A DNA stretch of 64,000 nucleotides. It comes from an uncultured Myxococcales bacterium (GTDB lineage: Bacteria; Myxococcota_A; Polyangia; Fen-1088). The notes under the pieces were generated by a model. The model did not search any database and had not been told where the DNA came from. It was given only the letters and a program-made list of their open reading frames with translations. The stretch covers positions 23,672-87,671 of the forward strand of contig CAZJMY010000424.1 of assembly GCA_964546845.1 (NCBI GenBank), written 5' to 3'. Of the stretch, positions 41,078 to 61,381 are shown piece after piece; position 1 is the first letter of the stretch, and the number at the start of each line of letters is the position of its first letter. A program made the translations under genes and the position numbers.

Positions 41078-42337
41078 TCACGCGAGGTCACGAGCGATCG
41101 CGTCTATCGCCTTCAATCCCTGACCGAAGCGGGCCATGGCTTCCCGATGCTTCTCGAGTTCGCCGTAGGGCAGGTAGCGTACGTGCAAATCTCCGACGCG
41201 CTGGAACGCAGGCCGGCGGAGCTGCGCGCGGACGTCCTCCTCGCGATCATCGGGCGCGACCAGAAAGAGGGCCCGCGTGGCGCTGCCCGGCGCGCCGAGC
41301 GCCAGGTCGAGCAGGCGCACAATGCCGCTGTAGATCGAGGTCGTGTGCTCGACTTCGAAGGCGGCGACGACGGCGCCACCGTTCTTGTCAATCCAGAGCA
41401 CGTCGATCAGGCGAATGGCGTCGACGCCGGGCACGCCCGACAGCCACGCCGGGAGGTGATCGAGGCAGCCGTCGCCGAGCTGCCCCCCGTCGAGCGGGCG
41501 CCCGCGATCGTTCACCGCCACCCACACGTCGAAGCCGAGCGCGCGACCGAGATCGCGCAGCCAGCCCTGGACCTCCGTGTGGGTCCGGTCGTCCGCTCGG
41601 GCGCCTTCGCGGGCATTTCGCTCCTTCGCGCTCTCTTCGCGGACGTGGAGGAGATCCTGCTCCCAGGCCGCGCGCGCCGCGGCGTCGTCGCTCCGAGGCG
41701 GAGCGGCGTAGCGACCGCCCCCGACGTCGAACAACAGCCCGCCGAAGGCGCCCAGGTCATTCGACAGGAGGTCACGGTGATCGGCGTTCATCCGCAAGAT
41801 GCCGGAGCGCATCGCCAGGTACTCCTCCCAGCTTCCGAGCTTGACCGATGCTCCGGTGAGCGCGTTGTAGCCGCGCACGATGGCTGTGTTGAACGGCGGC
41901 GCGATCGTCGGGTGGAGGAAATACAGGAGATTGGCGGCGGCCGGCCCCAGGCCCTTGATCGCGTGTCGGTCGAGCTCCCGGATCGCGTCGATGACCGCGT
42001 CGGCGCCTTGGCAGCAGACGCAGGTGTCGAGGAAGCGGCCGAAGGCCCGCTGGTTGTCTGGCGATTCGTAGATGTCGGGGATCCGCAGCTTCGGCTTCCA
42101 AAGGAACGCGTGGTCGGCGCCCTTGAAGATCTGGCGCTGCTCCGCGATCGACTTCACCACCACCTCCAGTGACGACCCGCGATACTGGCTTCCGAAGGTC
42201 CCCGCCTCGATCTCCTGCACGACCGTGGTGAGCCCGCGCCGGATCGAGCGGAAGTTCTTGAGCCGTTCCTCCCACAGGAACCAGCTGCGGTAGGTCCCGC
42301 CCGGATCGTCCCGCCACCGTGCGATCAGCGTTCGCAT
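41078..42337 (-). CDS. hypothetical protein with a C-terminal restriction-endonuclease-like (PD-(D/E)xK-type) region
   Basis: C-terminus HTEVQGWLRDLGRALGFDVWVA...IDVLWID...AAFEVEHTTSIYSGIVRLLDL resembles a nuclease core. N-terminal ~230 aa are unassigned (LGPAAANLLYFLHPTIAPPFN). Confidence 0.55.
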   Translation of the reverse strand: MRTLIARWRDDPGGTYRSWFLWEERLKNFRSIRRGLTTVVQEIEAGTFGSQYRGSSLEVVVKSIAEQRQIFKGADHAFLWKPKLRIPDIYESPDNQRAFGRFLDTCVCCQGADAVIDAIRELDRHAIKGLGPAAANLLYFLHPTIAPPFNTAIVRGYNALTGASVKLGSWEEYLAMRSGILRMNADHRDLLSNDLGAFGGLLFDVGGGRYAAPPRSDDAAARAAWEQDLLHVREESAKERNAREGARADDRTHTEVQGWLRDLGRALGFDVWVAVNDRGRPLDGGQLGDGCLDHLPAWLSGVPGVDAIRLIDVLWIDKNGGAVVAAFEVEHTTSIYSGIVRLLDLALGAPGSATRALFLVAPDDREEDVRAQLRRPAFQRVGDLHVRYLPYGELEKHREAMARFGQGLKAIDAIARDLA

Positions 42338-42368: not shown

Positions 42369-43046
42369 TCAAGAGGCTTCGCCGGGGCCGATGACGTTCG
42401 GCACGTGGTGCTCGCGGCAACATGGAGGCAGCTCGTCGAAAAGGCGCCTCAGAGCGTCGGCGGCTTTGGCCAAAAAATCGGCTTGGCTCTCGACGAAGAA
42501 TCGGCGCGGGTGACCGCGCCACGCCTCCTCGATGCGCAGGTCGATGGCCGCCGCGGTCGCGGCCGGCTCGACTCGCAGCTTGTTGCTGTGGTCGTATCCG
42601 AGCGCTACGGACGGCGTTCGCAGATGAATCACGGTGTCGTAGCGCGCCAGCTCTGTCTCGCGGGTGGTGCCGGTCTCAGCGAGGAATTCGTTCTCGTCGC
42701 TCGGCCAGTACGCCAGGCCGTCCAGTGTTCCGCGATCGCATAGCGTGACGGCGGGGGCTCCGTCGGGCCCGATGAGCCGCTCGAGCTGCCGCTGCACATG
42801 GAAGATGGCTCGCTGTGCCGCCTTGCGCGACGCCTCGGAGTCCTCGCGCGGGAATCCGCCGCCGAACAGGATGCTGGCCGCCTCCGGCAGGACCCGCACG
42901 TGCTTGCAGAAGTAGCGCCGGACGAGCTCGAGGACGGCGGTCTTCCCTGCCCCGGGGCCTCCGGTAAGCACGACGCGCCGGCCGAGGTGCACGTCGGCGC
43001 ACGCGCAAGCGACGGGCCCAGCGGTCGACGCTGCGCCGGGGGTCAC
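42369..43046 (-). CDS. P-loop ATPase (NadR/AAA_28-like)
   Basis: Walker A LTGGPGAGKT and DRG (Walker B-like) CDRGTLDGLAYW. 31 nt upstream of the nuclease-like gene on the same strand. Confidence 0.65.
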   Translation of the reverse strand: MTPGAASTAGPVACACADVHLGRRVVLTGGPGAGKTAVLELVRRYFCKHVRVLPEAASILFGGGFPREDSEASRKAAQRAIFHVQRQLERLIGPDGAPAVTLCDRGTLDGLAYWPSDENEFLAETGTTRETELARYDTVIHLRTPSVALGYDHSNKLRVEPAATAAAIDLRIEEAWRGHPRRFFVESQADFLAKAADALRRLFDELPPCCREHHVPNVIGPGEAS

Positions 43047-43103
43047 GCCACTCCGATCGCAACGGCCGGGTCAGGCGAACAAGGTGGGTGAGCGTCTCCC
43101 GGC

Positions 43104-43158
43104 TTCATCGTTCGCGCCTCCGCAGAGAGCGCGGCTCCTAGAGAACACGAACGATGAA
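43104..43158. repeat. perfect 11-bp inverted repeat TTCATCGTTCG / CGAACGATGAA separated by 33 nt
   Basis: Read from the sequence. Lies between the 3-prime end of 43210..43578 and the start of the ATPase gene. Confidence 0.3.
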
Positions 43159-43209
43159 CCCGAGGTTCGACTTCAGGATACGAGGCGACGGGGAGCATCG
43201 CCCATCACC

Positions 43210-43578
43210 CTATTTCCCCTGCAGCTCTTTTGCCCGCAAGGTGTGATAGTCAGCAGCCTTTTCGGCATCGGCCGCCAGCTTGTCGGCGTCCTTGGCGATC
43301 AGCTCGCAGTGCTTCTTCATCTTTACCGCGTTGGCGTTGGGAGTGGGCCCGTTGGTCGGCTGGTGCTGAGCCGCATAGGCGGCCGCCATGGCTTTATGAT
43401 CCTCGGCGACCTTCTTGTACTGCGCCGCCTGATCTTTGTATTGCTTCGCGAGCGCCTCGTGCTCCGCCACGGTCGTGGGCACCTTGGCCTCGTCGGCGAA
43501 TGATGTCGTCGCCGTGAGCGCAAATGCGGCGAAGGCAAGGGACGCGAGCAGCGGTCGGATTCGGGTAGCAGCTATCAT
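43210..43578 (-). CDS. periplasmic helical protein (family Y, copy 1)
   Basis: ATG at 43578 with AGGAGAG RBS. Signal peptide. AEHEALAKQYKDQAAQYKKVAEDHKAMAAAY...KMKKHCELIAKDADKLAADAEKAADYHTLRAKEL. Confidence 0.62.
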   Translation of the reverse strand: MIAATRIRPLLASLAFAAFALTATTSFADEAKVPTTVAEHEALAKQYKDQAAQYKKVAEDHKAMAAAYAAQHQPTNGPTPNANAVKMKKHCELIAKDADKLAADAEKAADYHTLRAKELQGK

Positions 43579-43645
43579 GATTCTCTCCTGTGGTCGTGTG
43601 GTGGTGTTGGCCTGCCCACTCACTCGAGTGGCCCGGCTTGTGCTT

Positions 43646-44017
43646 CTACTTTCCAGCCAGCTCCTTGGCGCGCAGCGTGTGGAAGTCCGCCGCCTTCTCG
43701 GCGTCGGCCGCAAGCTTGTCGGCGTCCTTCGCCAGCATCTCGCAGTGCTTCTTCATCTTCTCGTTCCACGGATTCTTCATGCCGCCCTTCGCGTCCGGAT
43801 GCGCCTTCGCGTAGACGGCGGCCATCTCCCTGTGTTCATCCGCGGTCTTCTTGTACATCGCGGCCTCCTCCTTGTACTGCTTCGCCAGCGCTTCGTGCTC
43901 TGCGGTCGTGGTCGGCACCTTCGCCGATTCGCCGGCGACGGACGCAGTTGCGGTAAGCGCGAAGGCGACGAACGCGAGCGAGGCGAGGATCGTGCGGGTC
44001 TTGGTAGCGAGCTTCAT
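43646..44017 (-). CDS. periplasmic helical protein (family Y, copy 2; tandem paralogue)
   Basis: ATG at 44017 with AAGGAGAAA RBS. Nearly colinear with copy 1. About 88% nt identity over a ~62-nt block (43262-43323 vs 43698-43759). Confidence 0.62.
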   Translation of the reverse strand: MKLATKTRTILASLAFVAFALTATASVAGESAKVPTTTAEHEALAKQYKEEAAMYKKTADEHREMAAVYAKAHPDAKGGMKNPWNEKMKKHCEMLAKDADKLAADAEKAADFHTLRAKELAGK

Positions 44018-44150
44018 GACGTTTCTCCTTTTTTCTTGGTTCGTGAATCGGATACGGAACCCGGGTATGCAGCCCGCGTTCCAACCGAAGCGCTCGGTCC
44101 GAATCTCGGCTCCGAGCGGAGCGAACATAGGAAAATGCGTAGGGGACCTC

Positions 44151-44175
44151 CAGTGTGACCTCGGGAGTTACACTG
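44151..44175. promoter_or_regulatory. imperfect inverted repeat CAGTGTGAC-N7-GTTACACTG (candidate operator)
   Basis: Located in the divergent intergenic region between 44017 (-) and the regulator start at 44335 (+). 8 of 9 arm positions pair. Confidence 0.25.
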
Positions 44176-44334
44176 AGGGATTCGGCACGTCCTTCATCGA
44201 CGGCGCCGGTAAGCGCAGGAATTGCGCGGATCGCGAAGCCGTTCCGCAAAACCCCGTGGGGCACGTACCTTGCCTTCCCGTCTACCGTCTTTCGTACCCA
44301 ACCCCCGTTTGAACAGAAACATGGCGGAAACGAC

Positions 44335-44616
44335 GTGAACTCTCGGGACAAGAGCGAGCTCGGTGCTCGCCTGAAGAGGATCGCTGGCCAGGTGGCCGGG
44401 ATTCAGCGCATGCTCGACGAGGATCGCTCGCTGCTGGAGGTCGTCACCCAGCTGAGCGCAGTGCGCGCCGCTCTGGGAGGCGTCGCGAACATCATCGTAG
44501 GTGCCCACGTCGAGGAGCGCATCAACAAGATGCTGGCCAGCGACGATGCGCGAGAACAGCGGGCGCTGGTCAGCGAGCTGGTGGGCTTGTTCGAGAAGCG
44601 CCATCGCGACGTGTGA
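44335..44616 (+). CDS. CsoR/RcnR/FrmR-family (DUF156) metal-responsive repressor lacking the canonical Cys ligands
   Basis: GTG start in frame (93 aa). LKRIAGQVAGIQRMLDEDRSLLEVVTQLSAVRAALGGVANIIVGAHVEE. The usual Cys before the TQ motif is Leu, and the H-x3-C position reads H-V-E-E. Confidence 0.82.
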   Translation: MNSRDKSELGARLKRIAGQVAGIQRMLDEDRSLLEVVTQLSAVRAALGGVANIIVGAHVEERINKMLASDDAREQRALVSELVGLFEKRHRDV

Positions 44617-45304
44617 CGGCCGCGGGCAACGGCTCACGAAACAGATCACCCTTCGATCAATTCGGAAAGCCTCGGCGCGCATCACGACCTCGAGAGAGCG
44701 AAGTACTCGGCACAATCGGGGGGCCGGTCGCGACAGCGTCTCGGTCTGGGCTGGCGTCAACCCAACGCGACGACGGATCGATAGAGCAACTGGCGATGAT
44801 GGCCAAATCACACCATCCCTTAGCCAGGACGATGCACCATCGGTTGTCGCCCATTTGAGATCTCCAAATGGCATTGAGTCGCGCGATGGAGCGGGGAGAA
44901 GGCCGCCGAAGAAGCTCCCGCGCGCCCGACGCAGGTCAACACGCACGCGCACGAATCGCACAGCGCAAGCTTGCGTGGCGAAGAATGTGCGCGCTTTCTC
45001 GCCGTAACCGGCGCGGTCACACGAGTGTGCACAGTCGATGCCAGCAGGAGCGAATCCCCGTAGACGCAGATCGTTCGTCGGGTCAACCGTGCGGGCATAC
45101 CCCGCTGCCGCGTCGGGAGTCGAGCCCGAAAGCACAGGGAATCGTCAACGACACCTCCGGTCTGCGGAACAGCGGATGCCATTGGTCCAACCGCGAGCAG
45201 GCTTGCCGAAGCGCGACGGTGATCGTGCCGTAACCCTACCGGCTACGGGGCCAGAACGCGTCCTTTGAGCCTGTGGCGCGGTCGTTGCTTCGAGGAGTCC
45301 CGTG

Positions 45305-46594
45305 ATGCACACCAAGTCGATCTCGCGCAGACGAAGTGCCGGCGCCTCGGCGTTCGTTGCGCTTCTCCTCGCATCACCCGCCGTGGCGCACGCGCAAGGC
45401 GTCGCCAAGCTCGATCCCCTCGTCGAGGAAGCCGTCAGCCATCATCCCGCGGTCCGGAGCGCCGAGCGGATCGCCGGCGCCGCGGCCGAGGTCGTCTCGC
45501 GCGAGGGCTCCCTCCCTGACCCGATGCTGTCGGGCGGCGTGCGGAATCTCCGTGTGGACAGCCCGCGACTCAGCTCCGATCCCATGAGTGGTGTCGAGAT
45601 CGCCATTACCCAGGACATCCCGTTTCCGGGGAAGCGCGCTCGGCGCGCGAGGGTCGCGAGCGCGAACGCAGATGTGGCTCGACGCGACGCCACGGCCGTC
45701 GCGGTCGGTGCGGCGCTGCGTGTGCGGCAAGCCTATTGGCGCCTTCGCTTCGCGGAAGAGGCAGAGCGGATCACGCGCGAGGGTGTGGACATTCTCGCCC
45801 ACCTCTCCGAGATCACGAAGGCGCGCGTCTCCGTGGGGCAAGCTGCGCAGCAGGACTTCTTCCAGGCGGAGGTGGCCCGCGGGCGGGCCGTCGGGATGGT
45901 GCAGGAGCGGGCGCAAATGCTCGTCACCGCGCGCCGAGAACTCAACAGCGCCGTCGGGCGCCCACCGGAGACGCCCGTCGGGCCCACAGAAGCACCATCC
46001 GAACCTCCGCCTCTGCATCCTTCGATGATCACGGCGGCGGCCGCTCGCGCAAATCCTGAACTCCTGACCATGATCGCGCGCGCCACCGCCGCCTCTCGCG
46101 CCGTCGAGGAAGCCAGATACGATCGCTGGCCGGACCTCCAGGTCGGCGCCAGTTACATGTTTCGTGCCGCGGTTCCTGGAGATCCCGCCAACGGCGCCGA
46201 CATGTTCAGCGTCGGGATGGGCGTGACGCTGCCCTTCTGGATCGCACGCAAGCAGGACGCACACCTGCGCGAGGCTCGTGAGAGCCTCGCCGCGGCCGAA
46301 GCAGGCATCGACACGAGCGCCCTCGTCGCCGCCACGGCCGCGCAGACCGCGCTCGACGTGGTCGAGCGGCTCACCCGCGAGATCGCGTTGTTCGAAGACG
46401 AGGTGACACCAAATGCTGAGCAGGCGGTCGCGACCGGGACCGCTGACTATCGCGTAGGCAAAACCGCCTTCGTCTCACTCTTGCAAAGCTGGCAAGCGCT
46501 GCTCGATGCGCAACTCGACTCCGCCCGGCTCCGTTCCGAGCGGGCGCAGGCGCTCGCCGAAATTCAGGCGCTCACCGGAGAAGCGGCGCGGTGA
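45305..46594 (+). CDS. cusC: TolC-like outer membrane factor
   Basis: Signal peptide ending AVAHAQG. OMF repeat architecture. GTGA overlap with the next gene. Confidence 0.87.
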   Translation: MHTKSISRRRSAGASAFVALLLASPAVAHAQGVAKLDPLVEEAVSHHPAVRSAERIAGAAAEVVSREGSLPDPMLSGGVRNLRVDSPRLSSDPMSGVEIAITQDIPFPGKRARRARVASANADVARRDATAVAVGAALRVRQAYWRLRFAEEAERITREGVDILAHLSEITKARVSVGQAAQQDFFQAEVARGRAVGMVQERAQMLVTARRELNSAVGRPPETPVGPTEAPSEPPPLHPSMITAAAARANPELLTMIARATAASRAVEEARYDRWPDLQVGASYMFRAAVPGDPANGADMFSVGMGVTLPFWIARKQDAHLREARESLAAAEAGIDTSALVAATAAQTALDVVERLTREIALFEDEVTPNAEQAVATGTADYRVGKTAFVSLLQSWQALLDAQLDSARLRSERAQALAEIQALTGEAAR

Positions 46595-48042
46595 GTGACG
46601 AGAGTAACAGAGAGGATGCGAGGAAAATGACCACGACGACAACGCCTGTCTCAGGGATACATTGGTGGAGCCGCGTGCACAGTGTCGGCGCCCTTTCGAT
46701 TGGCGCGGTCCTGCTCGTCGCGGGCATCGCGATCGGCGCGAGTCTGAGCCACATCGGCAGACGGACGGTCGCGGGTGTGGGCGTACCGACCCAGAAAGAG
46801 ACAGCCATGGGACCAGCCGTCACGGCATCGGACCCTGCCTCGCCGCCGACGGCGACGAAGCCCGTCACTCGCGTCAAGATCTCTCCCGAACGCCAGCAGC
46901 TCATCGGTGTTCGGACGGCGATCGTGGGCGCCTCAGTTGCGGAGGGGACGATCCGCACCGTCGGCATCCTCGCCTACGACGAGACCAAGGTGACCGAGAT
47001 GCATGCCAAGGTGGCGGGCTGGGTGGAGAAGGTCAACGTCGATTACGTCGGCAAGTCGGTGCGGAAGGGCGATCCGCTGCTCTCGCTCTACAGCCCTGAC
47101 CTGGTCGCCGCCCAGCTCGACTACCTCGTGTCACTGAAGAGCGTGGGAGGGAAGGTTGCGACGCCGACATCGGTCGGCCGACACCTCGACCATTCGCTCA
47201 CCGAAGCAAGCCGGATGCGGCTCAAGCTGCTCGACATGACGGACGCTCAGATCGCAGACCTCGAGCGGACGGAGCGTCCATCCAGGACTGTGACGCTGTA
47301 CTCGCCGTTCTCCGGCGTCGTGATCGAGCGCAAGGCTTTCTCCGGGCAGTACATCACGCCGGATATGGCGACGGTGAAGATCGGGGATCTCACGACGATC
47401 TGGGCGATCGCCCAGGTGTACGAATACGAGATCGGCAAGGTGAAGATCGGTGACGTCGCGGAGGTTCAGTTCCCCTACGAACAGGCGAAGCCGGTGGCGG
47501 GACGAGTGAGCTTCATCTACCCGGACGTCGATCCGCATACGCGCACGGCGCGGGTCCGCGTCGCGTTCCGCAACCCGGGCGTGAAGCTCAAGCCGGAATC
47601 GTTCGTGACGATCACTCTTCACGCCGCGGGTAAGTCTCGGCTCTCCGTGCCGAGAGAAGCGGTGATCGACACCGGCCCCAGGCAATACGTCCTGATGGCG
47701 CTGCCCGACGGCTACTTCGAGCCCCGAGACGTCTCGGCCGGCGAGCCCGAGGGTGACTCCATCCCGATCTCGGCTGGCCTCGTCCCTGGCGAGCGCGTGG
47801 TCACGTCGGCGCAGTTCTTGATTGATTCGGAGACGAACCTCCAGGCCGCGATGCAGTCGATGTCGATGACGATGCCTGGAATGAAGACGGACGAGAAATC
47901 CCCCGGGGACGACATGAGGGGGATGGACATGAGCAAGGGGACCGGCACGAAACCAAGCTCTGCACCAGTGCCTGGAGACGACATGAAGGGAATGGACATG
48001 GGGCCTGCCACGCCGGCGCGAACGGGAACGGATCGCAGATGA
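46591..48042 (+). CDS. cusB: RND membrane fusion protein with Met-rich C-terminal tail
   Basis: MFP core (GTIRTVGILAYDETKV...LYSPDLVAAQ...). Tail with MQSMSMTMPGM and a duplicated GDDM(R/K)GMDM. ATGA overlap with the RND gene. Confidence 0.9.
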   Translation: MSDESNREDARKMTTTTTPVSGIHWWSRVHSVGALSIGAVLLVAGIAIGASLSHIGRRTVAGVGVPTQKETAMGPAVTASDPASPPTATKPVTRVKISPERQQLIGVRTAIVGASVAEGTIRTVGILAYDETKVTEMHAKVAGWVEKVNVDYVGKSVRKGDPLLSLYSPDLVAAQLDYLVSLKSVGGKVATPTSVGRHLDHSLTEASRMRLKLLDMTDAQIADLERTERPSRTVTLYSPFSGVVIERKAFSGQYITPDMATVKIGDLTTIWAIAQVYEYEIGKVKIGDVAEVQFPYEQAKPVAGRVSFIYPDVDPHTRTARVRVAFRNPGVKLKPESFVTITLHAAGKSRLSVPREAVIDTGPRQYVLMALPDGYFEPRDVSAGEPEGDSIPISAGLVPGERVVTSAQFLIDSETNLQAAMQSMSMTMPGMKTDEKSPGDDMRGMDMSKGTGTKPSSAPVPGDDMKGMDMGPATPARTGTDRR

Positions 48043-51000
48043 TCAAGAAGCTGATCGCGTTTTCGGCGCGGAGCCCGTTCGTCGTCGTCCTATTGATGGT
48101 CGTCATCGTGGGCGCCGGCGTGTGGGCGATTCGCCATACACCGATTGACGCGATCCCGGATCTCTCGGATGTGCAGGTCATCGTGACGACTAACTGGGAG
48201 GGCCGCAGCCCGACGCTGGTCGAGGACCAGGTCACTTACCCCATCGTGACCGCCCTGCTGTCGGCGCCGCGGGTGAAGGTGGTCCGCGGGTTCTCGTACT
48301 TCGACATCTCGTTCGTCTACGTCATCTTCGAGGACGGCACCGATCAGTATTGGGCCCGCTCGCGTGTCCTCGAGTACTTGAACGGCTTGCAAGGCCGCCT
48401 CCCGGCCGGCGCACAGCCCGTGCTCGGACCGGACGCGACCGGCGTCGGCTGGGGATTCGAATACGCGCTCGTCGACAAGACCGGAAAGCATGATCTCGCC
48501 GAGCTCCGGACGCTGAACGACTGGTACGTGCGCTATTGGCTGCGATCTGTGACTGGCGTGGCCGACGTCGCCCCGGTGGGTGGTTTCGTCAAGCAGTATC
48601 AGATCGAGATCGATCCGAACGCGCTGCTCGCCTACAACGTGCCCATCGATCGCGTGATCGCGGCCGTGCGGAAGAGCAACAACGATGTCGGTGGGCGCGT
48701 GGTCGAGTGGACCGGCCACGAGTACATGGTGAGAGGTGAAGGTTACGTCAAGAACGTGGCCGATCTCGAGCAGGTGGGCCTCGGGGCGAAGCCGGACGGC
48801 ACGCCCATCCTCGTGAAGAACATCGCACGCGTTCACCTCGGGCCGGAGATGCGCCGAGGGGTAGCCGAGCTCGACGGTCAAGGCGACGCGGCCGGCGGCA
48901 TCGTCGTCATCCGGTCGGGCGTCGACACCTACGGTGTGCTGTCCGCGATCAAGAAGGCAATCAGAGAAAAGATCCAACCAGCCCTTCCTCCGGGCGTAAA
49001 GCTGGTCACCACCTACGATCGCTCGCAGCTCATCGAGCGGTCGATCGAGACCCTCAAGGGGAAGCTGATCGAGGAGATGGCGATCGTTTCGCTGGTGTGC
49101 ATCGTCTTCCTCTGGCATTTCCGCAGCGCGCTTGTCGCGATCCTGACGCTTCCCTTGGCGCTCTTGCTCGCCTTTGTCGCCATGCGCCTCGTGGGCCTCG
49201 GTTCGAACATCATGAGCCTGGGCGGAATTGCGATCGCCATCGGCGCGATGATCGACGCCGCGATCATCATGATCGAGAACGCCCACAAGCACATCGAGCA
49301 CGCGGGCGACACGAAACCTCGGCGTGAGATCCTCATCGAGGCGGCTCAGGAGGTGGGGCGGCCGCTCTTCTTCTCGCTCCTCATCATCACGGTGTCGTTC
49401 CTGCCCATCTTCACTCTGGAGGCGCAAGAGGGCCGCCTCTTCAAGCCGCTCGCCTTCACGAAGACGTTCTCGATGGGGTTCGCGGCGCTGACCTCGGTGA
49501 TGATCGTCCCGTTCTTGATGGTGCTGTTCATCAGGGGGCGGATCCCTCGCGAGGACAGCAACCCCGTGAACCGATTACTCATCTGGGCGTATCACCCGTT
49601 CGTCAGGCTGGTCCTCCGTCATCGCGCGCTCACGCTGCTTGCGGCGGCTGTGCTCCTCGGCAGCACCGTGCCGGTGATCATGAAGCTCGGCTCGGAGTTC
49701 ATGCCGCCGCTCTATGAGGGGACGCTGCTCTACATGCCGCTCACCCTCCCGGGCGCTTCGGTGGCGACGTCGCAGCAGATCCTGGCGCTACAAGACAAGC
49801 TCATCAAGGAGATCCCCGAAGTGGCGTCGGTGTTCGGTAAGGCCGGCCGCGCCGAGACGGCCACTGACCCGGCGCCGCTCGAGATGATCGAAACGGTCAT
49901 CAACCTCAAACCCGAGTCGGAATGGCGCCCTGGGATGACCCCCGACAAGGTCGTCGCGGAGCTCGACAAGAGGGTACGAGTGCCCGGCGTCGCCAATGCC
50001 TGGACCATGCCCATCAAGGCGCGCGTCGACATGCTCTCGACAGGTATCAGGACGCCCGTTGGAATCAAGATCTTCGGGCCGACCCTCGAGACGATCAACG
50101 ACATCGGGGCGCAGATCGAGGGGGCGCTCGGTTCGGTACGCGGGACCCGCAACGTCTTTTCCGAGCGGGTCACCGGCGGCTACTACGTCGACTTCAAGGT
50201 GAGACGCGACCAGATCGCGCGTTACGGCCTCACGGTCGAGGACGTGGAGATGGTGATCGAGTCGGCGATCGGCGGCGCCAACGTGACTACGACCATCGAG
50301 GGGCGCGAGCGCTACCCGGTGAACGTACGCTACCAGCGCGCCTACCGGACCGACGTCAAGGCGCTGAAGAGGACGCTCATCGCCGCTGGCGACGGCACGC
50401 AGATCCCTCTCGAGCAGGTCGCCGACATCAGCCTCAGCACCGGACCGACCGTGATCCGGACCGAGCAGGCGCAGCTTCTCGGGTACGTCTACGTCGACGT
50501 GTCCGATCGCGACATCGGAGGGTACGTAAACGACGCCAAGCAAGCCGTGGCGAGAATGGTGAAGCTGCCGACCGGCTATACGCTGGAATGGAGCGGGCAG
50601 TACGAGTACATGCTTCGCGCCAAGGAGCGCCTCAAGGTCGTCATTCCGATCACCCTGCTCGCCGTCATCGTGCTTCTCTACTTCAACACGCGCAACGTCG
50701 CCAAGATCGTCATCGTCCTTCTCGCCGTGCCCTTCTCGTTGATCGGCGCTTTCTGGGTGGTTTATCTGCTCGGCTACAACCTGAGCGTTGCCGTCTGGGT
50801 TGGCTTCATCGCGCTGGCCGGAGTCGACGCCGAGACCGGCGTGGTTATGCTGCTTTACCTCGACGCCGCTTACGATCGCGCGAAGAGCGAGGACCGGATG
50901 AACGGCCTTCGCGATCTCCAGCTCGCAGTCGAGGACGGGGCCGTCAAGCGCATCCGACCCAAGATGATGACGGTCATGGCGATCCTGATGGGGCTCCTGC

Positions 51001-51182
51001 CCATCATGTGGAGCAGGGGCGCGGGTGCCGACGTCATGAAGCGGATAGCCGCGCCCATGGTGGGTGGGGTCGTGACGTCGTTCATCTTGGAGCTGCTGAT
51101 CTACCCCGTGATCTTCACGCTCTGGAAGAAGCGGGAAGTGCTGGCGCGGCAGCGTCAGACGAGCAATGGCGGTGAGCCGTGA
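48039..51182 (+). CDS. cusA: HME-RND efflux pump, CusA-type (1047 aa)
   Basis: TM4 signature AIGAMIDAAIIMIEN. Colinear with 15827..19636 except for that gene's insertion and extension. Confidence 0.93.
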   Translation: MIKKLIAFSARSPFVVVLLMVVIVGAGVWAIRHTPIDAIPDLSDVQVIVTTNWEGRSPTLVEDQVTYPIVTALLSAPRVKVVRGFSYFDISFVYVIFEDGTDQYWARSRVLEYLNGLQGRLPAGAQPVLGPDATGVGWGFEYALVDKTGKHDLAELRTLNDWYVRYWLRSVTGVADVAPVGGFVKQYQIEIDPNALLAYNVPIDRVIAAVRKSNNDVGGRVVEWTGHEYMVRGEGYVKNVADLEQVGLGAKPDGTPILVKNIARVHLGPEMRRGVAELDGQGDAAGGIVVIRSGVDTYGVLSAIKKAIREKIQPALPPGVKLVTTYDRSQLIERSIETLKGKLIEEMAIVSLVCIVFLWHFRSALVAILTLPLALLLAFVAMRLVGLGSNIMSLGGIAIAIGAMIDAAIIMIENAHKHIEHAGDTKPRREILIEAAQEVGRPLFFSLLIITVSFLPIFTLEAQEGRLFKPLAFTKTFSMGFAALTSVMIVPFLMVLFIRGRIPREDSNPVNRLLIWAYHPFVRLVLRHRALTLLAAAVLLGSTVPVIMKLGSEFMPPLYEGTLLYMPLTLPGASVATSQQILALQDKLIKEIPEVASVFGKAGRAETATDPAPLEMIETVINLKPESEWRPGMTPDKVVAELDKRVRVPGVANAWTMPIKARVDMLSTGIRTPVGIKIFGPTLETINDIGAQIEGALGSVRGTRNVFSERVTGGYYVDFKVRRDQIARYGLTVEDVEMVIESAIGGANVTTTIEGRERYPVNVRYQRAYRTDVKALKRTLIAAGDGTQIPLEQVADISLSTGPTVIRTEQAQLLGYVYVDVSDRDIGGYVNDAKQAVARMVKLPTGYTLEWSGQYEYMLRAKERLKVVIPITLLAVIVLLYFNTRNVAKIVIVLLAVPFSLIGAFWVVYLLGYNLSVAVWVGFIALAGVDAETGVVMLLYLDAAYDRAKSEDRMNGLRDLQLAVEDGAVKRIRPKMMTVMAILMGLLPIMWSRGAGADVMKRIAAPMVGGVVTSFILELLIYPVIFTLWKKREVLARQRQTSNGGEP

Positions 51183-53517
<2,335 letters not shown>

Positions 53518-53521
<4 letters not shown>

Positions 53522-53799
53522 CCCCGGAGCGACAAGATGGCGACCTCAAGCGTGCGGTGGAGCGACGCCGGGCCCGCCGCGACCGATGGCTGCGCGAGGG
53601 CGAGCGGCCGCTCGCGCGCAACCTGGCTCTCGTCGGGACGCTCGGGTGGCTCATCGTCGTCCCGGCGCTCCTCGGCGCGCTGGCGGGTCACGCCCTCGAT
53701 CGTCGCGCTGGCACCGGGGTGACGTTCACGTCCGCGCTCATCTTCGCTGGTGTTGCGATCGGGTGCTGGCTCGCCTTCAGCCACGTGAGGCGCTCATGA
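53518..53799 (+). CDS. atpQ: AtpQ (AtpI-like) small membrane protein of N-ATPase operons
   Basis: 93 aa with an Arg-rich N-terminus and two TM helices. Assigned by position between atpC and atpR. Confidence 0.65.
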
Positions 53800-54080
53800 C
53801 GATCAAGGCTGTGCTGGTCGCGCTCCTGTTCGCCTTCGGCGGGTTCGGTGTCGGTCTCGCGCACCTGGCCACACTGCGCGGCAACCTGCGCCTTTATCTC
53901 GACGGAGGGGTGCGTGTCGCGGCGGTGGCAGCTCACGTCGCCCGCCTCGCGCTCTTGGCCACTGTCTGGATCGTCGCAGCGCGCGTCAGTGGCGCCGTCG
54001 GGCTGCTCGCAGGTTTCGCCGGCTTCCTTCTGGCCCGGCTGGCCGTCACCTCCCGGATGAACATGAGGGAACGGCGATGA
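53796..54080 (+). CDS. atpR: AtpR small membrane protein of N-ATPase operons
   Basis: ATGA overlap. 94 aa with three hydrophobic segments and embedded Arg ([12 protein letters not shown]). Assigned by position before atpB. Confidence 0.65.
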
Positions 54081-54751
54081 GCCGAGCTTCTCCCCTCGAG
54101 ACGGAGATCTTGTTCCACCTGGGCTCGATCCCGATTGCGCGTCCAGTGGTGACGACGTTCGCGATCACCCTCTTGCTTGGTCTCGGCAGCTGGGCGGTCA
54201 CTCGTCACATGCGGGTCGCGCCTGGTCGTTCGCAGGCGGTGCTCGAAGCGGTCGTGACCTGGATCGGCGATCAAGTGCAGGAGATCGTGCGGCGCGATCC
54301 GACGCCGTTCGTCCCGCTGCTTGGAACTTTGTTCCTGTACATAGCGGTCGCGAACTTGTCGGCGGTCCTACCCGGGGTGAAGTCCCCGACCGCGAGCATC
54401 GAGACGCCGGCGGCGCTGGCCATCGTGGTCTTCTTTGCGGCCCATGCCTACGGGATCCGGGCGCAAGGGGTGAAGCGCTATTTTGCCTCGTACCTCGAGC
54501 CCAATCCCCTGCTCTTGCCCCTCAACATCGTCTCGGAGATCACGAGGACATTCTCGCTCATGGTCCGGCTCTTCGGAAACATGATGAGCCACGAGCTGGT
54601 GCTCGGAATCGTGGCCACCATCGCCGGCCTCCTCGTGCCGATTCCCTTCATGGCGCTGGGGATCCTGGTGGGGGTCATCCAGGCATACATCTTTTCGATC
54701 TTGGCAACCGTGTTCGTGGGCGCGGCCGTAGGGGCCGTCGAGAAAGGATAG
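54077..54751 (+). CDS. atpB: ATP synthase a subunit
   Basis: ATGA overlap. Conserved stator Arg region [14 protein letters not shown]. Five or six TM helices. Confidence 0.87.
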
Positions 54752-54756
54752 AGAAA

Positions 54757-54999
54757 ATGACCGTTCAAGTGATCAGCGTGATTTGTGCAACCGTCGCCGT
54801 GTCGATCGGCGCCATCATCCCGCCTCTTGCAGAGGGGCGCGCTATCGTCGCAGCGCTGGAGGCCATCGCCCGCCAGCCCGAGGCGCAGGGGCCCCTGTCA
54901 CGGACCCTGTTCGTCGGCCTCGCGATGATCGAGACGATGGCGATCTATTGCCTCGTCGTGGCGCTGCTGCTGCTCTTCGCGAACCCCTACGCCCGTTAA
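54757..54999 (+). CDS. atpE: ATP synthase c subunit (proteolipid)
   Basis: 80-aa helical hairpin with ARQPE loop. Helix-2 carboxylate in [11 protein letters not shown] and an additional helix-1 Glu in PPLAEGRA. Confidence 0.88.
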
Positions 55000-55018
55000 G
55001 GGCGATCCCGGATACACC

Positions 55019-55756
55019 ATGAGCGGGTGGACCCTAGTCTTCCAGATCGTGAACTTCGTGGTCCTCGCGGCCGTGCTCCGCCGTTTCCTGTTCAAACCGG
55101 TTGCCGCCATGGTTGCGAAGCGCCAGCAGAATCTGGCGGCCACCGCCGCGGAGGGGGAGCGCGTTCGCCGTGAGGCCGAGGCGCTTCGTCTCAACGCCGA
55201 CAAGGCCCTCGCCGAGGCGGTCGAGATCCGCGAGCGAGCGCTCGCCGAGGGGCGGGCGCAGATAGCGCGAGAGCGGGAGGAGACCCTCGCGAAGGCTCGG
55301 CAGGAGGCGAGCAGCACCCTCGACGTGGCCAGGCACGAGATTGATCGCGAGCGCGACAAGGCGGCCGACGCCGCCGCGACCGGGGCGTTGGATCTGGCCG
55401 CCGTGATCGCGCGACGGTTGCTCGAGCAGGTCTCCGCGACGTCGTTGGTCGACGCATTCCTCGCCCGGCTCTGCGAGCACCTCGACGGCGCCTCCGAAGA
55501 GAGCAAGCGCGCGCTGCGCGACGATCTCGGCGCCCGCGAGCTCCTCGTGGCGACGGCGCCCCCGCTCGGCCCCGACGCCGGCCCACGGTGGCGCGCGGAC
55601 ATCGCGCGGCGTCTCGGCGACGGGGTCGCCATAAGGCTCGTCGCCGACGACGCCCTGGTGGCCGGCGCCGAGCTGCGCTTCCCGCACACGACACTCTCTT
55701 TCTGCTGGCGCGATGGCATTAAGGCCGCACGCGAGGAGTTGGCGCGCCATGCCTAG
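55019..55756 (+). CDS. atpF: ATP synthase b subunit (long, 245 aa)
   Basis: N-terminal TM helix followed by an Ala/Arg/Glu-rich long helix. Assigned by operon position. Confidence 0.72.
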   Translation: MSGWTLVFQIVNFVVLAAVLRRFLFKPVAAMVAKRQQNLAATAAEGERVRREAEALRLNADKALAEAVEIRERALAEGRAQIAREREETLAKARQEASSTLDVARHEIDRERDKAADAAATGALDLAAVIARRLLEQVSATSLVDAFLARLCEHLDGASEESKRALRDDLGARELLVATAPPLGPDAGPRWRADIARRLGDGVAIRLVADDALVAGAELRFPHTTLSFCWRDGIKAAREELARHA

Positions 55757-57275
55757 CGTTACCGAACAGGTTGTCGGGCGCCTCGAGCGGGCGCGTGCGG
55801 CCGCCGAAGGTCTGACAACCGAGCCGGTCGAGCGCGAGCGCGGCACCGTCGAGACCGTGGGTGCGGGGGTGGTCACCGTCTCCGGGCTCCCCAGCACGCG
55901 TCTCGATGAGATCCTCCGCCTGTCCGGCGACAGCTACGCGATGGCGGTCGTGCTCGACGTCGATCGAATCGGCGCCGTGCTCCTCGATCGCGCCGACACC
56001 GTCACCGCCGGCGGGGAGGTCAGCGGCACCGGCGAGGTCCTCCGGGTGCCGGTCGGCGAGGGGCTGCTCGGTCGGATCGTCGATCCGCTCGGCCGGCCGC
56101 TCGACGGCGGCCCTGCGATCGAGGCGGTCCGGCGCGATCCCATCGAGCGTCCGGCACCCACGATCATCGAGCGGGACCTCGTGACCGAGCCCTTGCACAC
56201 GGGCCTCTTGGTGGTCGATGCGATGATCCCCATCGGGCGCGGGCAACGCGAGCTCATCATCGGGGATCGGGTGACGGGCAAGACGCAGGTGGCGTTGGAC
56301 GCGGTGCTGGCGCAGCGAACGTCGGACGTGGTGTGCGTCTACGCCGCGGTAGGGCAGAAGGCATCCGCGATCGGACGTCTGATCGAGGAGGTCAAGGCCT
56401 CGGGACCGTTCGATCGCTGCATCTTCGTCGTGGCAGAGGCCGACGACCAGCCCGGCATGCAATGGATCGCTCCCTACGCCGCCTGCACGATGGCGGAGTA
56501 CTTCCGCGACCGCGGCGGCCACGCGCTGCTCATCATCGACGACCTGACGAAGCACGCGATCGTCCACCGCGAACTCTCGCTCTTGCTCCGGAACCCTCCC
56601 GGCCGTGAAGCCTACCCGGGCGACGTCTTCTATCTCCACGCGCGCCTACTCGAGCGCGCCGCCAAGCTGTCGAAGGAGAGGGGCGGCGGCTCGCTCACCG
56701 CGCTGCCGATCGCCGAGACGCAGGGCGGGAACATGAGCGCATACATTCCGACCAACCTCATTTCGATCACCGATGGGCAGATCTACCTCGAGACCAAGTT
56801 GTTTCACGAGGGACAGAAGCCGGCCGTCAATGTGGGCAAGAGCGTCAGTCGCGTGGGGGGTAAGACCCAGCCTCACGCTATTCGCTCCCTCGCCGGGAGC
56901 CTGCGCCTCGACTACGCGCAGTTCCTAGAGTTGGAGGTGTTCGCTCGATTCGGCCAGGTCCTCGACCCCCGAACCGAGCAGGCCCTCGACCGCGGGCGCC
57001 GGATCCGCGCGGCCCTCGAGCAGCCGCAGTCCGAGCCGCATGCGCTGGTGACTGAGGCGGCCATCCTCGTCGCGGTCCGGGAGGGGGTGCTCGACGGACT
57101 ACCTCTTCCCAAAGTGGCGCCCTTCATGCGAGCGCTGGGATCAGATCTGAGCACATGGGAGCCTGGCCTCGTCGAGCGCGTCGAGCACACGGGCCGCCTC
57201 GACGAGCCGGATCGCACCCGCATTGTCGACTGGCTCCGCCGGCGGGCGCAGGCAATTGCGAAGGGCGGAGGCTAG
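55749..57275 (+). CDS. atpA: ATP synthase alpha subunit
   Basis: The ATG at 55749 overlaps the atpF end. Walker A GDRVTGKTQVAL. Alpha-type core. Confidence 0.92.
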   Translation: MPSVTEQVVGRLERARAAAEGLTTEPVERERGTVETVGAGVVTVSGLPSTRLDEILRLSGDSYAMAVVLDVDRIGAVLLDRADTVTAGGEVSGTGEVLRVPVGEGLLGRIVDPLGRPLDGGPAIEAVRRDPIERPAPTIIERDLVTEPLHTGLLVVDAMIPIGRGQRELIIGDRVTGKTQVALDAVLAQRTSDVVCVYAAVGQKASAIGRLIEEVKASGPFDRCIFVVAEADDQPGMQWIAPYAACTMAEYFRDRGGHALLIIDDLTKHAIVHRELSLLLRNPPGREAYPGDVFYLHARLLERAAKLSKERGGGSLTALPIAETQGGNMSAYIPTNLISITDGQIYLETKLFHEGQKPAVNVGKSVSRVGGKTQPHAIRSLAGSLRLDYAQFLELEVFARFGQVLDPRTEQALDRGRRIRAALEQPQSEPHALVTEAAILVAVREGVLDGLPLPKVAPFMRALGSDLSTWEPGLVERVEHTGRLDEPDRTRIVDWLRRRAQAIAKGGG

Positions 57276-58133: not shown

Positions 58134-59975
58134 ATGAAAGATCCCGTCTGTGGCATGCCTGTCGAACCGACGACGCCGTTCCGCGCCTCGTGGGAAGGCA
58201 GCGACTACTACTTCTGTTCGGCCCTGTGCCGGGAGGCTTTTCTCTCCCGACCGGGCGAAACGATCCCCCGCGAGCTTCCTTCGCCGGCCGCGGAGAACCG
58301 CGCCTCGAGGCGCGTCGCGTATCTGACCATGGAGATCGCCCTCGATTCCCGGATGGCGACTTACAGCGGGGGCCTCGGCGTCCTCGCGGGCGACACAGTC
58401 CGCGCCGCCGCCGATCTCGGCGTGCCCCTCGTGGCCGTCACGCTCCTCTATCGCGATGGCTATCTCGCGCAGTCAATCGATCCTGCTTCCGGCCAGCAGG
58501 AAACTCCCGAGCGCTGGCCCTTCGGAGAGTTTCTGCAACCGCTGGCAGAGACCGCCGAGGTCACGATCGACGGTCGCGCGGTCCGCGTGCGGGCGTGGCG
58601 GTACGATGTGGTCGGGGTCGCTGGGGCCAAGTGCCCCGTCCTGTTCCTCGATACCGAGCTTCCCGAGAACGATCCGCTCGATCGGGCGCTCTGCGGCCGG
58701 CTCTACTCGGGAGACGATCGGTACCGTCTGGCCCAGGAGGTGGTGTTGGGCGTCGGCTCGGTCCGCGTCCTGGATGCCCTGGGCTACTCCGGTATCGACC
58801 GCTATCACATGAACGAAGGCCACGCCGCGCTCGCGCCGCTCGAGCTGGCGCGTCGCCTGAATGCCGGGCGACCCGAGATGGAGTGGCGCTTCGATGACGT
58901 CCGCCGTCGCTCGGTCTTCACCACGCACACGCCCGTCGCGGCGGGCCACGACCACTTCTCACGGGAAATCGCGCAGCGCGTGCTCGGGGGAATGGTGCCA
59001 CCGCGGGTGTTGGAAATGCTGGGTGGCGACGGACAGCTCGACATGACCTCGTTGGCCCTGAATCTGTCGGGATACGTCAACGGCGTCGCACGCAAACACG
59101 CCGAGATCTCCCGCCAGATGCACCCCGGGTACGGCATCCATCACATCACGAACGGCGTCCACTCGAAGACCTGGACGGCGACCGCGTTTAGGGCGCTCTA
59201 CGATCGCCACCTGCCAGGCTGGGACGGCGACCCGTCGATGTTGCGGAACGCGATCGCCCTTCCGTCCGAGGAGGTGTGGCAGGCCCACCTGACCAGCAAG
59301 GCCGAGCTGATCGAGGTCGTTCGTCGGCTGACCGGCACGAATCTCGACGCGGGCGCGCTGACCATCGGGTTCGCGCGGCGAGCGACCCAGTATAAAAGGG
59401 CCGATCTGGTGTTCGACGATCTGCCGCGTCTTCGCGAGATCGCGCGGCGGCGGCCGGTCCAACTGGTCTTCGCGGGCAAAGCGCATCAACGCGACGACGA
59501 AGGGAAGCGTATCATCAGGCGCATTCTCGAGATCGGGCGCGAGCTGGGACGCGACGTGCCGGTCGTGTACCTGCCCAACTACGACACGGCGCTCGCGCGA
59601 GCCGTCGTCGCCGGGGTGGACGTCTGGCTCAACACGCCGCAAAGGCCCCTCGAGGCATCGGGCACGTCCGGAATGAAGGCTGCCCACAACGGCGTTCCGA
59701 GCCTGAGCGTGCTCGACGGCTGGTGGATCGAGGGCTGCGTCGAGGGTGTGACCGGCTGGGCGATTGGCGATCTCCGCCCACCCGGCGATCCGAACGAGGA
59801 TCGCCGGAGCGAGGCGCAGGATCTGCTGACGAAGCTCGACAGGCAGATCCTGCCCGCCTACTACGACGAACGGGAACGCTGGATCTCGATCATGCGCCAC
59901 GTGATCAGCCTGAACGCGTCGTTCTTCAACACGCACCGCATGGTCCAGCAGTACGTGACCAACGCCTATATCTGA
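58134..59975 (+). CDS. glgP: alpha-glucan phosphorylase (GlgP family) with N-terminal YHS/TRASH metal-binding domain
   Basis: N-terminus [10 protein letters not shown]...[12 protein letters not shown]. Core YLTMEIAL...[11 protein letters not shown]...LLYRDGY and PLP-Lys motif [14 protein letters not shown]. Starts 1 nt after the atpG stop. Confidence 0.87.
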
Positions 59976-60356: not shown

Positions 60357-60476
60357 GTCGGCCTCCCGCGCGATTGTGGATCGAAACGGGAGTGGTGTCT
60401 GCCACGAGCGGTCGCCTGTGACTCCAACGGTTACATTGTCCTTCCAAAACGACCTCCGTAGACTGCTTGGCCTGCA

Positions 60477-60959
60477 ATGACGACGACCACCCGCTTCGGG
60501 ATGTTGACCGAGCACCTTCACCGTGGGCCCCTGTGGCTCGCGCTCTGCCTTGCGAGGCCTGGCGCGGCTCTCGGCCACCTTGGGCACTCGCACGCGCCGC
60601 TGATCAAACGCACGGCCGAAGAGATCGCGGCATTCAAGGCAGCCGAGCCCGTGTTCGCGCAATACTGCTATCGATGCCACACCCACTCCGGCAAGAAATC
60701 GAAACCCAAGGCGCTCGCTCACCTCGACATGGATCAGTACCCATTCGGCGGCCATCACGCAGGCGAGGCGGCCGCCGTCATCCGGAAGGTCTTGGGCGCG
60801 ACCGGCGTGAAGGCCACGATGCCCTCCGACGATCCGGGCGCCGTCTCCGGCGACGCGCTCGCGAAGATTCTCGCCTGGGCAGACGCCTTCGATCGCGCCC
60901 ACCCGAGCGACGCCCCCGCGAAGCCGACCCATCGCCACAGCCATGAGGATTTGAAGTGA
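60477..60959 (+). CDS. c-type cytochrome-like protein (PSCyt1-like CxxCH domain) with His-rich C-terminus
   Basis: EPVFAQYCYRCHTHSGKKSKPKALAHLDMD ... ATMPSDDPGAVSGDALAKILAWADA. C-terminus HRHSHEDLK. Confidence 0.55.
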   Translation: MTTTTRFGMLTEHLHRGPLWLALCLARPGAALGHLGHSHAPLIKRTAEEIAAFKAAEPVFAQYCYRCHTHSGKKSKPKALAHLDMDQYPFGGHHAGEAAAVIRKVLGATGVKATMPSDDPGAVSGDALAKILAWADAFDRAHPSDAPAKPTHRHSHEDLK

Positions 60960-61381
60960 GCCGTGCGCCGGGCACCTTCGTGGTGGGCTTGGCTCTGGCG
61001 ATGAGCTGCGCCTCGCAGCCGCCGCCGCGCCCCGTGGCGGTCGACCCCTCGAACCCATCCGCGCCGGAGGCGCCGCCCCTCGAGACGTCGAACGTACTCG
61101 CCCCCGTGCCATCACCGACGCCGGAGGCCCATCCTGCGCAGCCCGACGGTGCAGCTGCTGGGTTGCCGGCGCCGATGCCCGAGCACCATCACGGCGCCAC
61201 GGCGAGGGAGGCTGGCGGCGGAGACCATCAGATGGAAGCGCCTCGGGCCCCTGCCTCCGAGTCTCCCGCAACCGTCTACACGTGCCCCATGCATCCCGAG
61301 GTGATTTCGGCCGAGCCCGGCTCGTGCCCGAAGTGCGGGATGAAGCTCGTCCCGAAGCGAGCGACCGAGGGCAAACAGTGA
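60956..61381 (+). CDS. lipoprotein with Pro-rich linker, His cluster and C-terminal HMBD module
   Basis: GTGA overlap. Lipobox-like LALAMSC. PEHHHG. YTCPMHPEVISAEPGSCPKCGMKLVPK. Confidence 0.65.
   Translation: MSRAPGTFVVGLALAMSCASQPPPRPVAVDPSNPSAPEAPPLETSNVLAPVPSPTPEAHPAQPDGAAAGLPAPMPEHHHGATAREAGGGDHQMEAPRAPASESPATVYTCPMHPEVISAEPGSCPKCGMKLVPKRATEGKQ

Follow-up and report, generated by a model that had tools for sequence, protein, structure and literature searches.

How does a regulator of the CsoR family work once it has lost the cysteines with which its relatives sense metals, and what is the task of the small exported proteins encoded opposite it? The question is raised by a 64,000-nucleotide (nt) stretch of DNA from an uncultured Myxococcales bacterium (contig CAZJMY010000424.1, positions 23,672 to 87,671; hereafter the window), in which a gene for a cysteine-less CsoR-family protein lies in front of a cusCBA-like efflux operon and is transcribed away from two adjacent genes for helical-hairpin proteins, here termed helB and helA. 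The window is part of a 142-kb contig (C424; coordinates with this prefix are those of the contig) of a metagenome-assembled genome (MAG) of a soil-dwelling Myxococcota bacterium that is 84% complete and comprises 6.45 Mb, so that the contig makes up 2.2% of the genome. The loss of cysteine is a conserved feature of a whole clade of regulators and not a one-off. The features of the locus are as follows.

43210-43578, minus strand: helA, the distal paralog; 122 amino acids (aa), Sec-type signal and two-helix hairpin, DHKAM (HxxM) and KMKKHC (MxxHC) kept
43646-44017, minus strand: helB, the proximal paralog; 123 aa, Sec-type signal and two-helix hairpin near the family consensus
44052-44068, minus strand: O1, candidate CsoR-type operator box ATACCCGGGTTCCGTAT; it overlaps the -12 element and the start site predicted for hel
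44068-44083, minus strand: sigma54-like -24/-12 promoter of helB-helA, TGGAACGCGGGCTGCA, GG-N10-GC
44154-44172: palindrome TGTGACCTCGGGAGTTACA, core of the inverted repeat 44151-44175; probable island-wide activator site
44213-44227: palindrome GCGCAGGAATTGCGC, candidate enhancer site (alignment columns ~225-272)
44260-44273, plus strand: sigma54-like -24/-12 promoter of the regulator-cusCBA operon, GGCACGTACCTTGC
44294-44311, plus strand: O2, second candidate CsoR-type box GTACCCAACCCCCGTTTG (family consensus GTACCCAACCCCGGTAT; alignment columns ~340-358)
44335-44616, plus strand: cysteine-less CsoR-family regulator; 93 aa, GTG start, X-Y-Z = L33-H58-R62
44617-45301: non-coding gap of 685 nt, where the closest relatives (L034, L036) have a P2A ATPase gene
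45302-46594, plus strand: outer-membrane factor, cusC-like (PF02321)
46591-48042, plus strand: cusB-like membrane-fusion protein whose C-terminal tail is Met-rich
48039-51182, plus strand: CusA-type pump of the heavy-metal-efflux (HME) class of the resistance-nodulation-division (RND) family; TIGR00914 with 1144 bits, transmembrane helix 4 (TM4) motif AIGAMIDAAIIMIEN, Met triad

A cysteine-free clade of CsoR-family regulators

The regulator matches PF02583 (Trns_repr_metal) over residues 5-87 with 73.5 bits against a cut-off of 22.8, in agreement with a first-pass annotation of the window that had assigned it to the DUF156 family, and it contains no cysteine at all. Similarity to the RicR, RcnR and FrmR models of NCBIfam is sub-threshold. 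HMMER alignment to CstR (7mq1), InrS (5fmn) and the CsoR of Geobacillus (4m1p) places L33 at position X, which is occupied by the ligand Cys in these proteins, H58 at Y and R62 at Z, with a Y-Z motif that reads H-V-E-E-R. The same annotation had noted Leu at the ligand-Cys position next to H-V-E-E and had deduced that no canonical Cu(I) or Ni/Co site can form, suggesting an alignment of this kind as the check; the deduction is borne out, since only Y (H58) retains a ligand-type residue. The N-terminus (M/V-N-S-R-D-K) provides no ligand at the W position, which is filled by His3 in RcnR and InrS and by Pro2 in FrmR; in the clade, His4 is found in ~20% of members and Pro2 in none.

Among 120 homologues of the regulator a sharp break separates ~70 proteins, nearly all of them Cys-free and with identities of 56-96%, from the next 50, which share ~45-50% identity, read C-H-C and all carry the RYC motif that is typical of CsoRs sensing Cu(I). 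In the clade of ~70 non-redundant proteins, 56/70 read L-H-R and the remaining ones likewise have no Cys at X; this position is Leu in 65/70 (95% of the 56 near-full-length proteins) and Cys in none, and most members are devoid of any cysteine. H58 is conserved in 93%, E60 in 100% and R62 in 88% of the clade (otherwise mostly Ser), and the exchange T61E is seen in 73%. A column comparison reveals that the clade and the canonical CsoRs have in common the α1 stretch R12-L-K-R-I-x-G-Q-V-x-G-I-Q-R-M as well as R31, Q39, R44, H58 and E81, including the DNA-contact residues R12, K14, R15, Q19, R25 and R44. Replacements specific to the clade are Y32 to P/S/E, C33 to L, T61 to E, C62 to R, K78 to L and F89 to R.

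A Cys at position X is present in CsoR, RicR, RcnR, InrS, FrmR, CstR and NcrB/NreA alike (2024 review, PMC11672702). Since each of the known inducer chemistries (Cu(I), Ni/Co, persulfide, formaldehyde) depends on this residue, none of them is available to the regulator, which thus probably does not sense Cu(I) directly. In a network analysis of CsoR proteins from 2021, clusters 6-9 are uncharacterised (PMC8643695). Like the CsoRs of Mycobacterium tuberculosis, Bacillus subtilis and Geobacillus (4m1p), the regulator belongs to PF02583, keeps the DNA-reading residues of α1, the His at Y and a second-shell Glu, has putative operators with a 15-bp TAC-N9-GTA frame that imply autoregulation, and is encoded upstream of metal-efflux genes; indeed, its nearest sequence relatives are x-C-H-C CsoRs. 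It differs from these proteins in having L33 and R62 instead of the two cysteines that ligate Cu(I), in lacking the second-shell Tyr and in the location of its operators at sigma54-like promoters; moreover, the constant partner of its gene is a periplasmic hairpin gene and not copZ/copA. RcnR, InrS, FrmR and CstR are of the same fold family but have kept the X Cys, which serves Ni/Co ligation, a methylene bridge or persulfide formation, whereas the clade has Leu at X, no Pro2 and no conserved His3.

Synteny of the regulator and hel genes

In a scan of metagenomes, all clade regulators for which 300 nt or more of the preceding sequence is available have a divergent hel gene (8/8; L034, L036-L040, L042, L044), and the same arrangement is found in L015, L020/L021, L023 and L029. 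By comparison, a divergent hel gene is present at 0/15 of the canonical CsoR loci examined. Hel genes without the regulator adjoin HME-RND pumps (L014, L024, L031) or multicopper oxidases (L015, L027, L030, L040); the regulator neighbouring hel in L027 is not a clade member because its X Cys is kept.

Downstream of the regulator two arrangements occur. In one, a PMR1/SERCA-like P2A ATPase with canonical PEGL and N/E/T/D residues is followed by genes for an outer-membrane factor, a membrane-fusion protein and an RND pump (L015, L020, L034, L035, L036, L041), and in the other cusC follows directly (the window, G007, L029, L043). The closest relative of the window, L036, is collinear with positions 43048-44638 at 87% nt identity and then continues with the ATPase; its regulator and that of L034 are 96% identical to the one described here. 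In the gap at 44617-45301, ~180 nt resemble the spacer between regulator and ATPase of L036 and ~335 nt (44639-44973) are without counterpart in L036, and tblastn detects no remnant of the P2A ATPase in it. No Rfam family is matched within 42900-45400.

The efflux pump itself is of the CusA/CzcA family and has Met at 3/3 positions of the methionine triad of Escherichia coli CusA. Its TM4 motif, A-I-G-x3-D-A-A-x3-I-E-N, is what we take to be the CusA-type among the HME signatures. The cus operon is without cusF, and the CusF domain (PF11604) has no match anywhere in the genome.

The control region between helB and the regulator

An alignment of 13 orthologous intergenic regions contains six conserved elements in otherwise divergent sequence. 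Boxes of the form TACCC-N5-GGGTA are situated 38-70 nt upstream of 15/15 canonical CsoR genes, and O1 and O2 have the identical 15-bp TAC-N9-GTA frame, therefore the DNA specificity of the clade looks inherited from canonical CsoRs. The O1 motif, TACCC-N7-GTA, has 2 matches in the window compared with 0.08 expected. While O1 spans the -12 element together with the predicted hel start site, O2 is located ~10-27 nt 3' of the predicted start of the regulator transcript. Judged from operator frame and retained DNA-contact residues, the regulator quite probably binds these boxes and represses.

Both promoters are of the sigma54 type in appearance. On the hel side, a sigma54-like promoter is found in 12/13 orthologous regions, with GG and GC kept even where the spacer differs (L020, L042). 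On the side of the regulator, GGC.C-N5-TTGC is invariant in 13/13 loci, is the sole exact match in the window and agrees with TGGCAC-N5-TTGC. The genome encodes RpoN and 47 enhancer-binding proteins, and within 43000-45400 no sigma70-type promoter was found. In Myxococcus xanthus, CorSR drives copper genes from sigma54 promoters (PMC3707914). A CsoR box placed on a sigma54 promoter would constitute a repressor/activator arrangement, of which no description was found in the literature searched.

Other readings of the region were considered and rejected. The inverted repeat GGAACCCGGG...CCCGCGTTCC around O1 could be taken for an RNA or DNA hairpin, but L020 and L042 lose the repeat and keep GG-N10-GC. 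A MerR-type promoter across the TGTGAC palindrome is ruled out by the spacing. Just upstream of the palindrome at 44213-44227 a second element, GCGCA-N5-TGCGC, is degenerate in the window; the aligned regions have one or two palindromes of this type. The only other CsoR-family gene of the genome (C636:30666-30949, L004) encodes a protein with an RcnR-like H-C-H-H fingerprint (MAH..., GGDCSK, HVREH) and is preceded at ~37 nt by a perfect palindromic box, TACCCCCCGGGGGTAT, whose half-sites are common to O1 and O2. Given these half-sites, cross-talk between the C636 protein and O1/O2 is conceivable.

The palindrome TGTGACC-N-GTTACA at 44154-44172 is conserved in most relatives. In the 6.45-Mb genome TGTGAC-N7-GTTACA occurs 5 times, and 5/5 copies are on this contig, which carries the copper island: one in this intergenic region, one at 60417-60435 and three outside the window (C424:108701, 129140 and 131008; loci L114, L115). 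Because all copies of the genome are confined to one contig of 2.2%, the palindrome marks an island-wide regulon. The inverted repeat at 44151-44175, which the first-pass annotation had included in the region proposed for binding by the CsoR-type protein, is real and conserved in relatives; it is probably the site of another, island-wide regulator and not a CsoR operator. The copy at 60417-60435 lies upstream of an operon for a protein resembling cytochrome c (60477-60959), a heavy-metal-binding protein of the HMBD type (60956-61381), an outer-membrane factor (61282-62787) and, from 62711 onward, a multicopper oxidase. A sigma54-like element, TGGCTCGCGCTCTGCC, is located ~117 nt 3' of this palindrome. 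One of the outside copies is found ~50 nt upstream of genes for a 507-aa histidine kinase (HAMP-HisKA-HATPase) and a 213-aa REC-HTH_8 response regulator (C424:131061-133222, with the response regulator at 132253-132894). Its position makes this pair a candidate for control of the copper island.

The hairpin protein family

Homologues of HelB number more than 380 at 90% clustering, none of which is named, and a profile search defines a family of 356 clusters at 50% identity. Among the genomes sampled from the phylum, ~8% have hel genes, which are also found in MAGs of Steroidobacteraceae and Blastocatellia. The scan of genome contigs yielded zero matches with a single Hel protein as query and succeeded with an alignment as query. 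Sequence and profile searches found no relatives in Pfam, NCBIfam or the PDB.

In the AlphaFold2 (AF2) model of HelB, residues 38-72 and 83-122 form two helices in which the predicted local distance difference test score (pLDDT) exceeds 90, with a mean of 83.4 for the whole protein. Foldseek searches with this model return only generic hairpins (EsxA/WXG100, E >= 0.16). A WXG100/EsxA identity was rejected on the basis of this generic match, a PF25547 score of 16.9 bits against a cut-off of 27 and the presence of a Sec-type signal. In a divergent alignment of 58 sequences, M1, H41, A45, Y48, H62, M65, H91, C92, A110 and H113 are at least 90% conserved, and in a closer alignment H41, H62, M65, M88, H91 and C92 do not vary, with H113 almost as constant. 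Both HxxM and MxxHC are found in 88/148 of the cluster representatives listed, many of the remainder being fragments. Read from the sequence, the conserved residues occupy the a/d heptad stripe of each helix and thereby the helix-helix core, and the sums of their positions (62+91 = 65+88 = 153; 41+113 = 154) are those expected where residues face each other in an antiparallel hairpin. Such pairing would place a His2-Met2(-Cys) layer close to the loop and a His-His layer close to the termini. Natural fusion proteins with two hairpins also exist in the family; Foldseek gave no significant match for the model of such a fusion, the list including designed heme-binding helical bundles.

The tetrads HxxM and MxxH are the Ag(I)-binding motifs of SilE (PMC5008109, PMC11904771). 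By analogy, H62-x-x-M65 and M88-x-x-H91-C92 in the Hel core, together with H41/H113, would most likely form a soft-metal site, and the hairpins are on balance expected to be soft-metal binders. Like Hel, SilE and PcoE are small, Sec-exported and encoded in Cu/Ag efflux loci, and use HxxM/MxxH tetrads on helices as soft-metal ligands. SilE is, however, intrinsically disordered, contains many repeated motifs and has no sequence homology to Hel, whereas Hel is predicted to be stably folded, with a single HxxM facing a single MxxHC and an invariant Cys. Membership of Hel in the SilE/PcoE family was consequently rejected, as there is one HxxM and one MxxH, no Pfam or NCBIfam match and a confident prediction of the helices. 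The role proposed for Hel resembles that of CusF, since Hel is co-located with cusCBA and control DNA is common to both. CusF is a small β-barrel that uses His/Met/Met and a cation-π contact of Trp, whereas Hel is all-helical and unrelated in sequence, and with no Pfam match for Hel an assignment to the CusF family (PF11604) was likewise discarded.

HelA and HelB are near-colinear, as had been noted for the two exported proteins of 122 and 123 aa, and share 69% aa identity with a single gap. Both are predicted to be Sec-exported because their N-termini are basic (K/R), followed by a hydrophobic segment that ends at an A-x-A-like site; the hairpins themselves comprise ~95 aa. The loop of HelA has diverged (QHQPTNGPTPNAN). 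At the nt level the overall identity is 70%, and the best 62-nt block, for which ~88% had been given, has 56/62 = 90%. The first-pass annotation had attributed the pair to a recent tandem duplication. This does not hold: the number of synonymous substitutions per site (dS) is 1.67 and saturated in both halves of the gene, and a maximum-likelihood tree joins HelA to its orthologue in metagenome contig L036 and HelB likewise to its own (support 100/100 and 99/99). The duplication is thus old. In the same tree the two are not sisters; along with single-copy genes from other lineages they belong to a group whose branching order is unresolved. Tandem hel pairs are found elsewhere in G007 (another species of the genus), G036 (another genus) and L044, and extend to another family as well, and the distal copies of these pairs form a separate, older clade. 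The nonsynonymous rate (dN) is 0.23 and dN/dS ~0.14 (Nei-Gojobori); purifying selection acts on both copies. In the 67 nt that separate helB from helA there is a short G+C-rich hairpin at 43612-43632 (CCACTC-ACTC-GAGTGG core), which might attenuate read-through into the distal paralog helA.

Proposed mechanism and alternative explanations

Under metal stress, activators bound to the central palindromes would switch on the two divergent sigma54-type promoters, and the copper input would probably enter via these activators and not via the Cys-less repressor. Transcription from the hel promoter would supply hairpins that bind periplasmic Cu(I)/Ag(I) and serve to buffer it or, like CusF, to pass it to CusCBA, and the other promoter would supply the repressor and the pump. 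The repressor, presumably a tetramer as in the CsoR family and with its DNA-reading helix kept, would occupy O1 and O2 and damp both hel and its own cusCBA operon. It cannot sense via thiolate chemistry, since it has neither the two cysteines that bind Cu(I), replaced by L33 and R62, nor the second-shell Tyr. Instead, it may act as a ligand-blind brake providing negative feedback, or may answer a harder cation or another non-thiophilic signal via H58/E60/E61.

We give about an even chance to the whole picture of a copper/silver-stress module, in which Hel proteins are Cu(I)/Ag(I) binders serving CusCBA and the Cys-less repressor acts on both promoters. More tentatively, the Cys-free CsoR clade as such may function as a brake or non-thiophilic sensor on sigma54-dependent copper promoters, with an obligate Hel partner whose His2-Met2-Cys site replaces CusF. 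A stable syntenic clade without cysteine would offer a natural test of how the allostery of the CsoR fold is driven or dispensed with. The hel family is large (hundreds of clusters, soil metagenomes) and unannotated, has a compact and testable metal-site signature beside CusF-less Cu/Ag pumps, and could fill a gap in understanding how many environmental bacteria feed their RND copper pumps.

Several observations weigh against this picture. In the window the right half-site of O2 is degenerate, reading GTT where relatives have GTA and where the consensus ends GGTAT. No enhancer-binding protein is encoded on the 142-kb contig and the only nearby response regulator lacks an AAA+ domain, so that sigma54 dependence is deduced from the promoter motifs. 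The AF2 model of the natural two-hairpin fusion does not form a compact four-helix bundle (predicted template modelling score, pTM, 0.51), and metal binding by Hel is derived from six conserved residues and their context, with core-facing His and Met that would suit heme equally well. The strong conservation of H58, E60 and E61 argues for a surviving ligand site, which makes a purely ligand-blind repressor uncertain. Finally, a P2A ATPase of the PMR1/Ca2+ type directly after the regulator in many relatives is a misfit for a purely Cu/Ag regulon.

It is this ATPase that keeps alive the explanation that the regulator directly senses a harder cation (Zn, Co, Ni, Mn, Fe(II), possibly Ca) and governs a mixed-cation efflux module. 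The site would then consist of N/O ligands from H58, E60, E61, E/D35 and the N-terminus MN-x-(R/H)-D-K. The conservation of H58, E60 and T61E given above fits such a site, as does the N-terminus, which is kept (His4 in ~20%), and the PMR1-type, Ca2+/Mn2+-like P2A ATPase is the first downstream gene in 6/11 clade loci. Furthermore, RcnR already uses mainly N/O ligands, yet every characterised family member has the X-position Cys (PMC11672702). The operon in the window and in G007 holds only the CusA-type pump with its Cu(I)/Ag(I) Met triad, the ligands of the hairpins are soft (Met, Cys), and the Arg at Z is a poor ligand that may itself fill the site. Taken together, a sensor of harder cations is rather unlikely, though it deserves to be kept in mind.

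Two further explanations concern the hairpins. In one, they are signalling modulators or chaperones like ZraP, CpxP and Spy, and metal only tunes a kinase of the island, such as that at C424:131061-133222. The layout of the locus mirrors zraP-zraSR of E. coli, where the gene for a small periplasmic helical protein that binds metal is divergent from a regulatory operon, with two sigma54 promoters and with inverted repeats in the centre. In addition, the island palindrome is also found upstream of the kinase itself. The likeness is architectural only, as the divergent regulator is a CsoR-type repressor and not a pair of kinase and enhancer-binding protein, and as homology between Hel and ZraP is not seen: hhalign against E. 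coli ZraP gives a probability of 1.3%, for which reason a ZraP/CpxP/Spy assignment (PF13801/PF07813) was rejected, the LTXXQ motifs are absent from Hel, and only 1/58 members, a remote one, has a weak match to PF13801 (E = 0.0077). Since hel also adjoins RND pumps and multicopper oxidases in many genomes without a nearby kinase, a ZraP-like role is improbable. In the other, the hairpins would bind heme b through His/Met axial ligation as in cytochrome b562 and carry electrons for the neighbouring multicopper oxidases. His and Met at core a/d positions of a helical bundle would permit this, genes for multicopper oxidases and for proteins like c-type cytochromes often lie nearby, and designed heme-binding bundles appear in the Foldseek list of the fusion model, none of them significant. 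However, neither fold nor sequence searches gave a significant match to a cytochrome, the strongest association is that with Cus-type pumps, and an invariant Cys beside His would be unusual for a b-type heme site, so that we consider heme binding very improbable.

Neighbouring genes

The putative copper/silver module is embedded among further genes of diverse function. On the hel side, 42369-43046 (minus strand) encodes an AAA_28 P-loop ATPase and 41078-42337 (minus strand) a 419-aa protein without Pfam family, both located between metal-efflux operons. Two more HME-RND pumps are encoded in the window. The one at 8492-11599 is CzcA-type (DFG...DGA...VEN), and the one at 16082-19636 is recovered by tblastn in two pieces, 19636-17213 and 16843-16082, which are ~370 nt apart, so that this gene may be interrupted.

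On the other side, an ATP synthase operon (51183-57275) begins right after cusA, with a one-base overlap with the cusA stop. Its first gene encodes a 629-aa subunit of the alpha/beta family with an N-terminal extension of ~160 aa and is followed by unassigned small open reading frames, the gene for subunit a (54077-54751) and that for another subunit of the alpha/beta family (55713-57275), a gene order like that of N-type ATPase operons. Further downstream, 58134-59975 encodes a 613-aa protein in which an N-terminal YHS (metal-binding) domain is joined to a carbohydrate-phosphorylase-like region.

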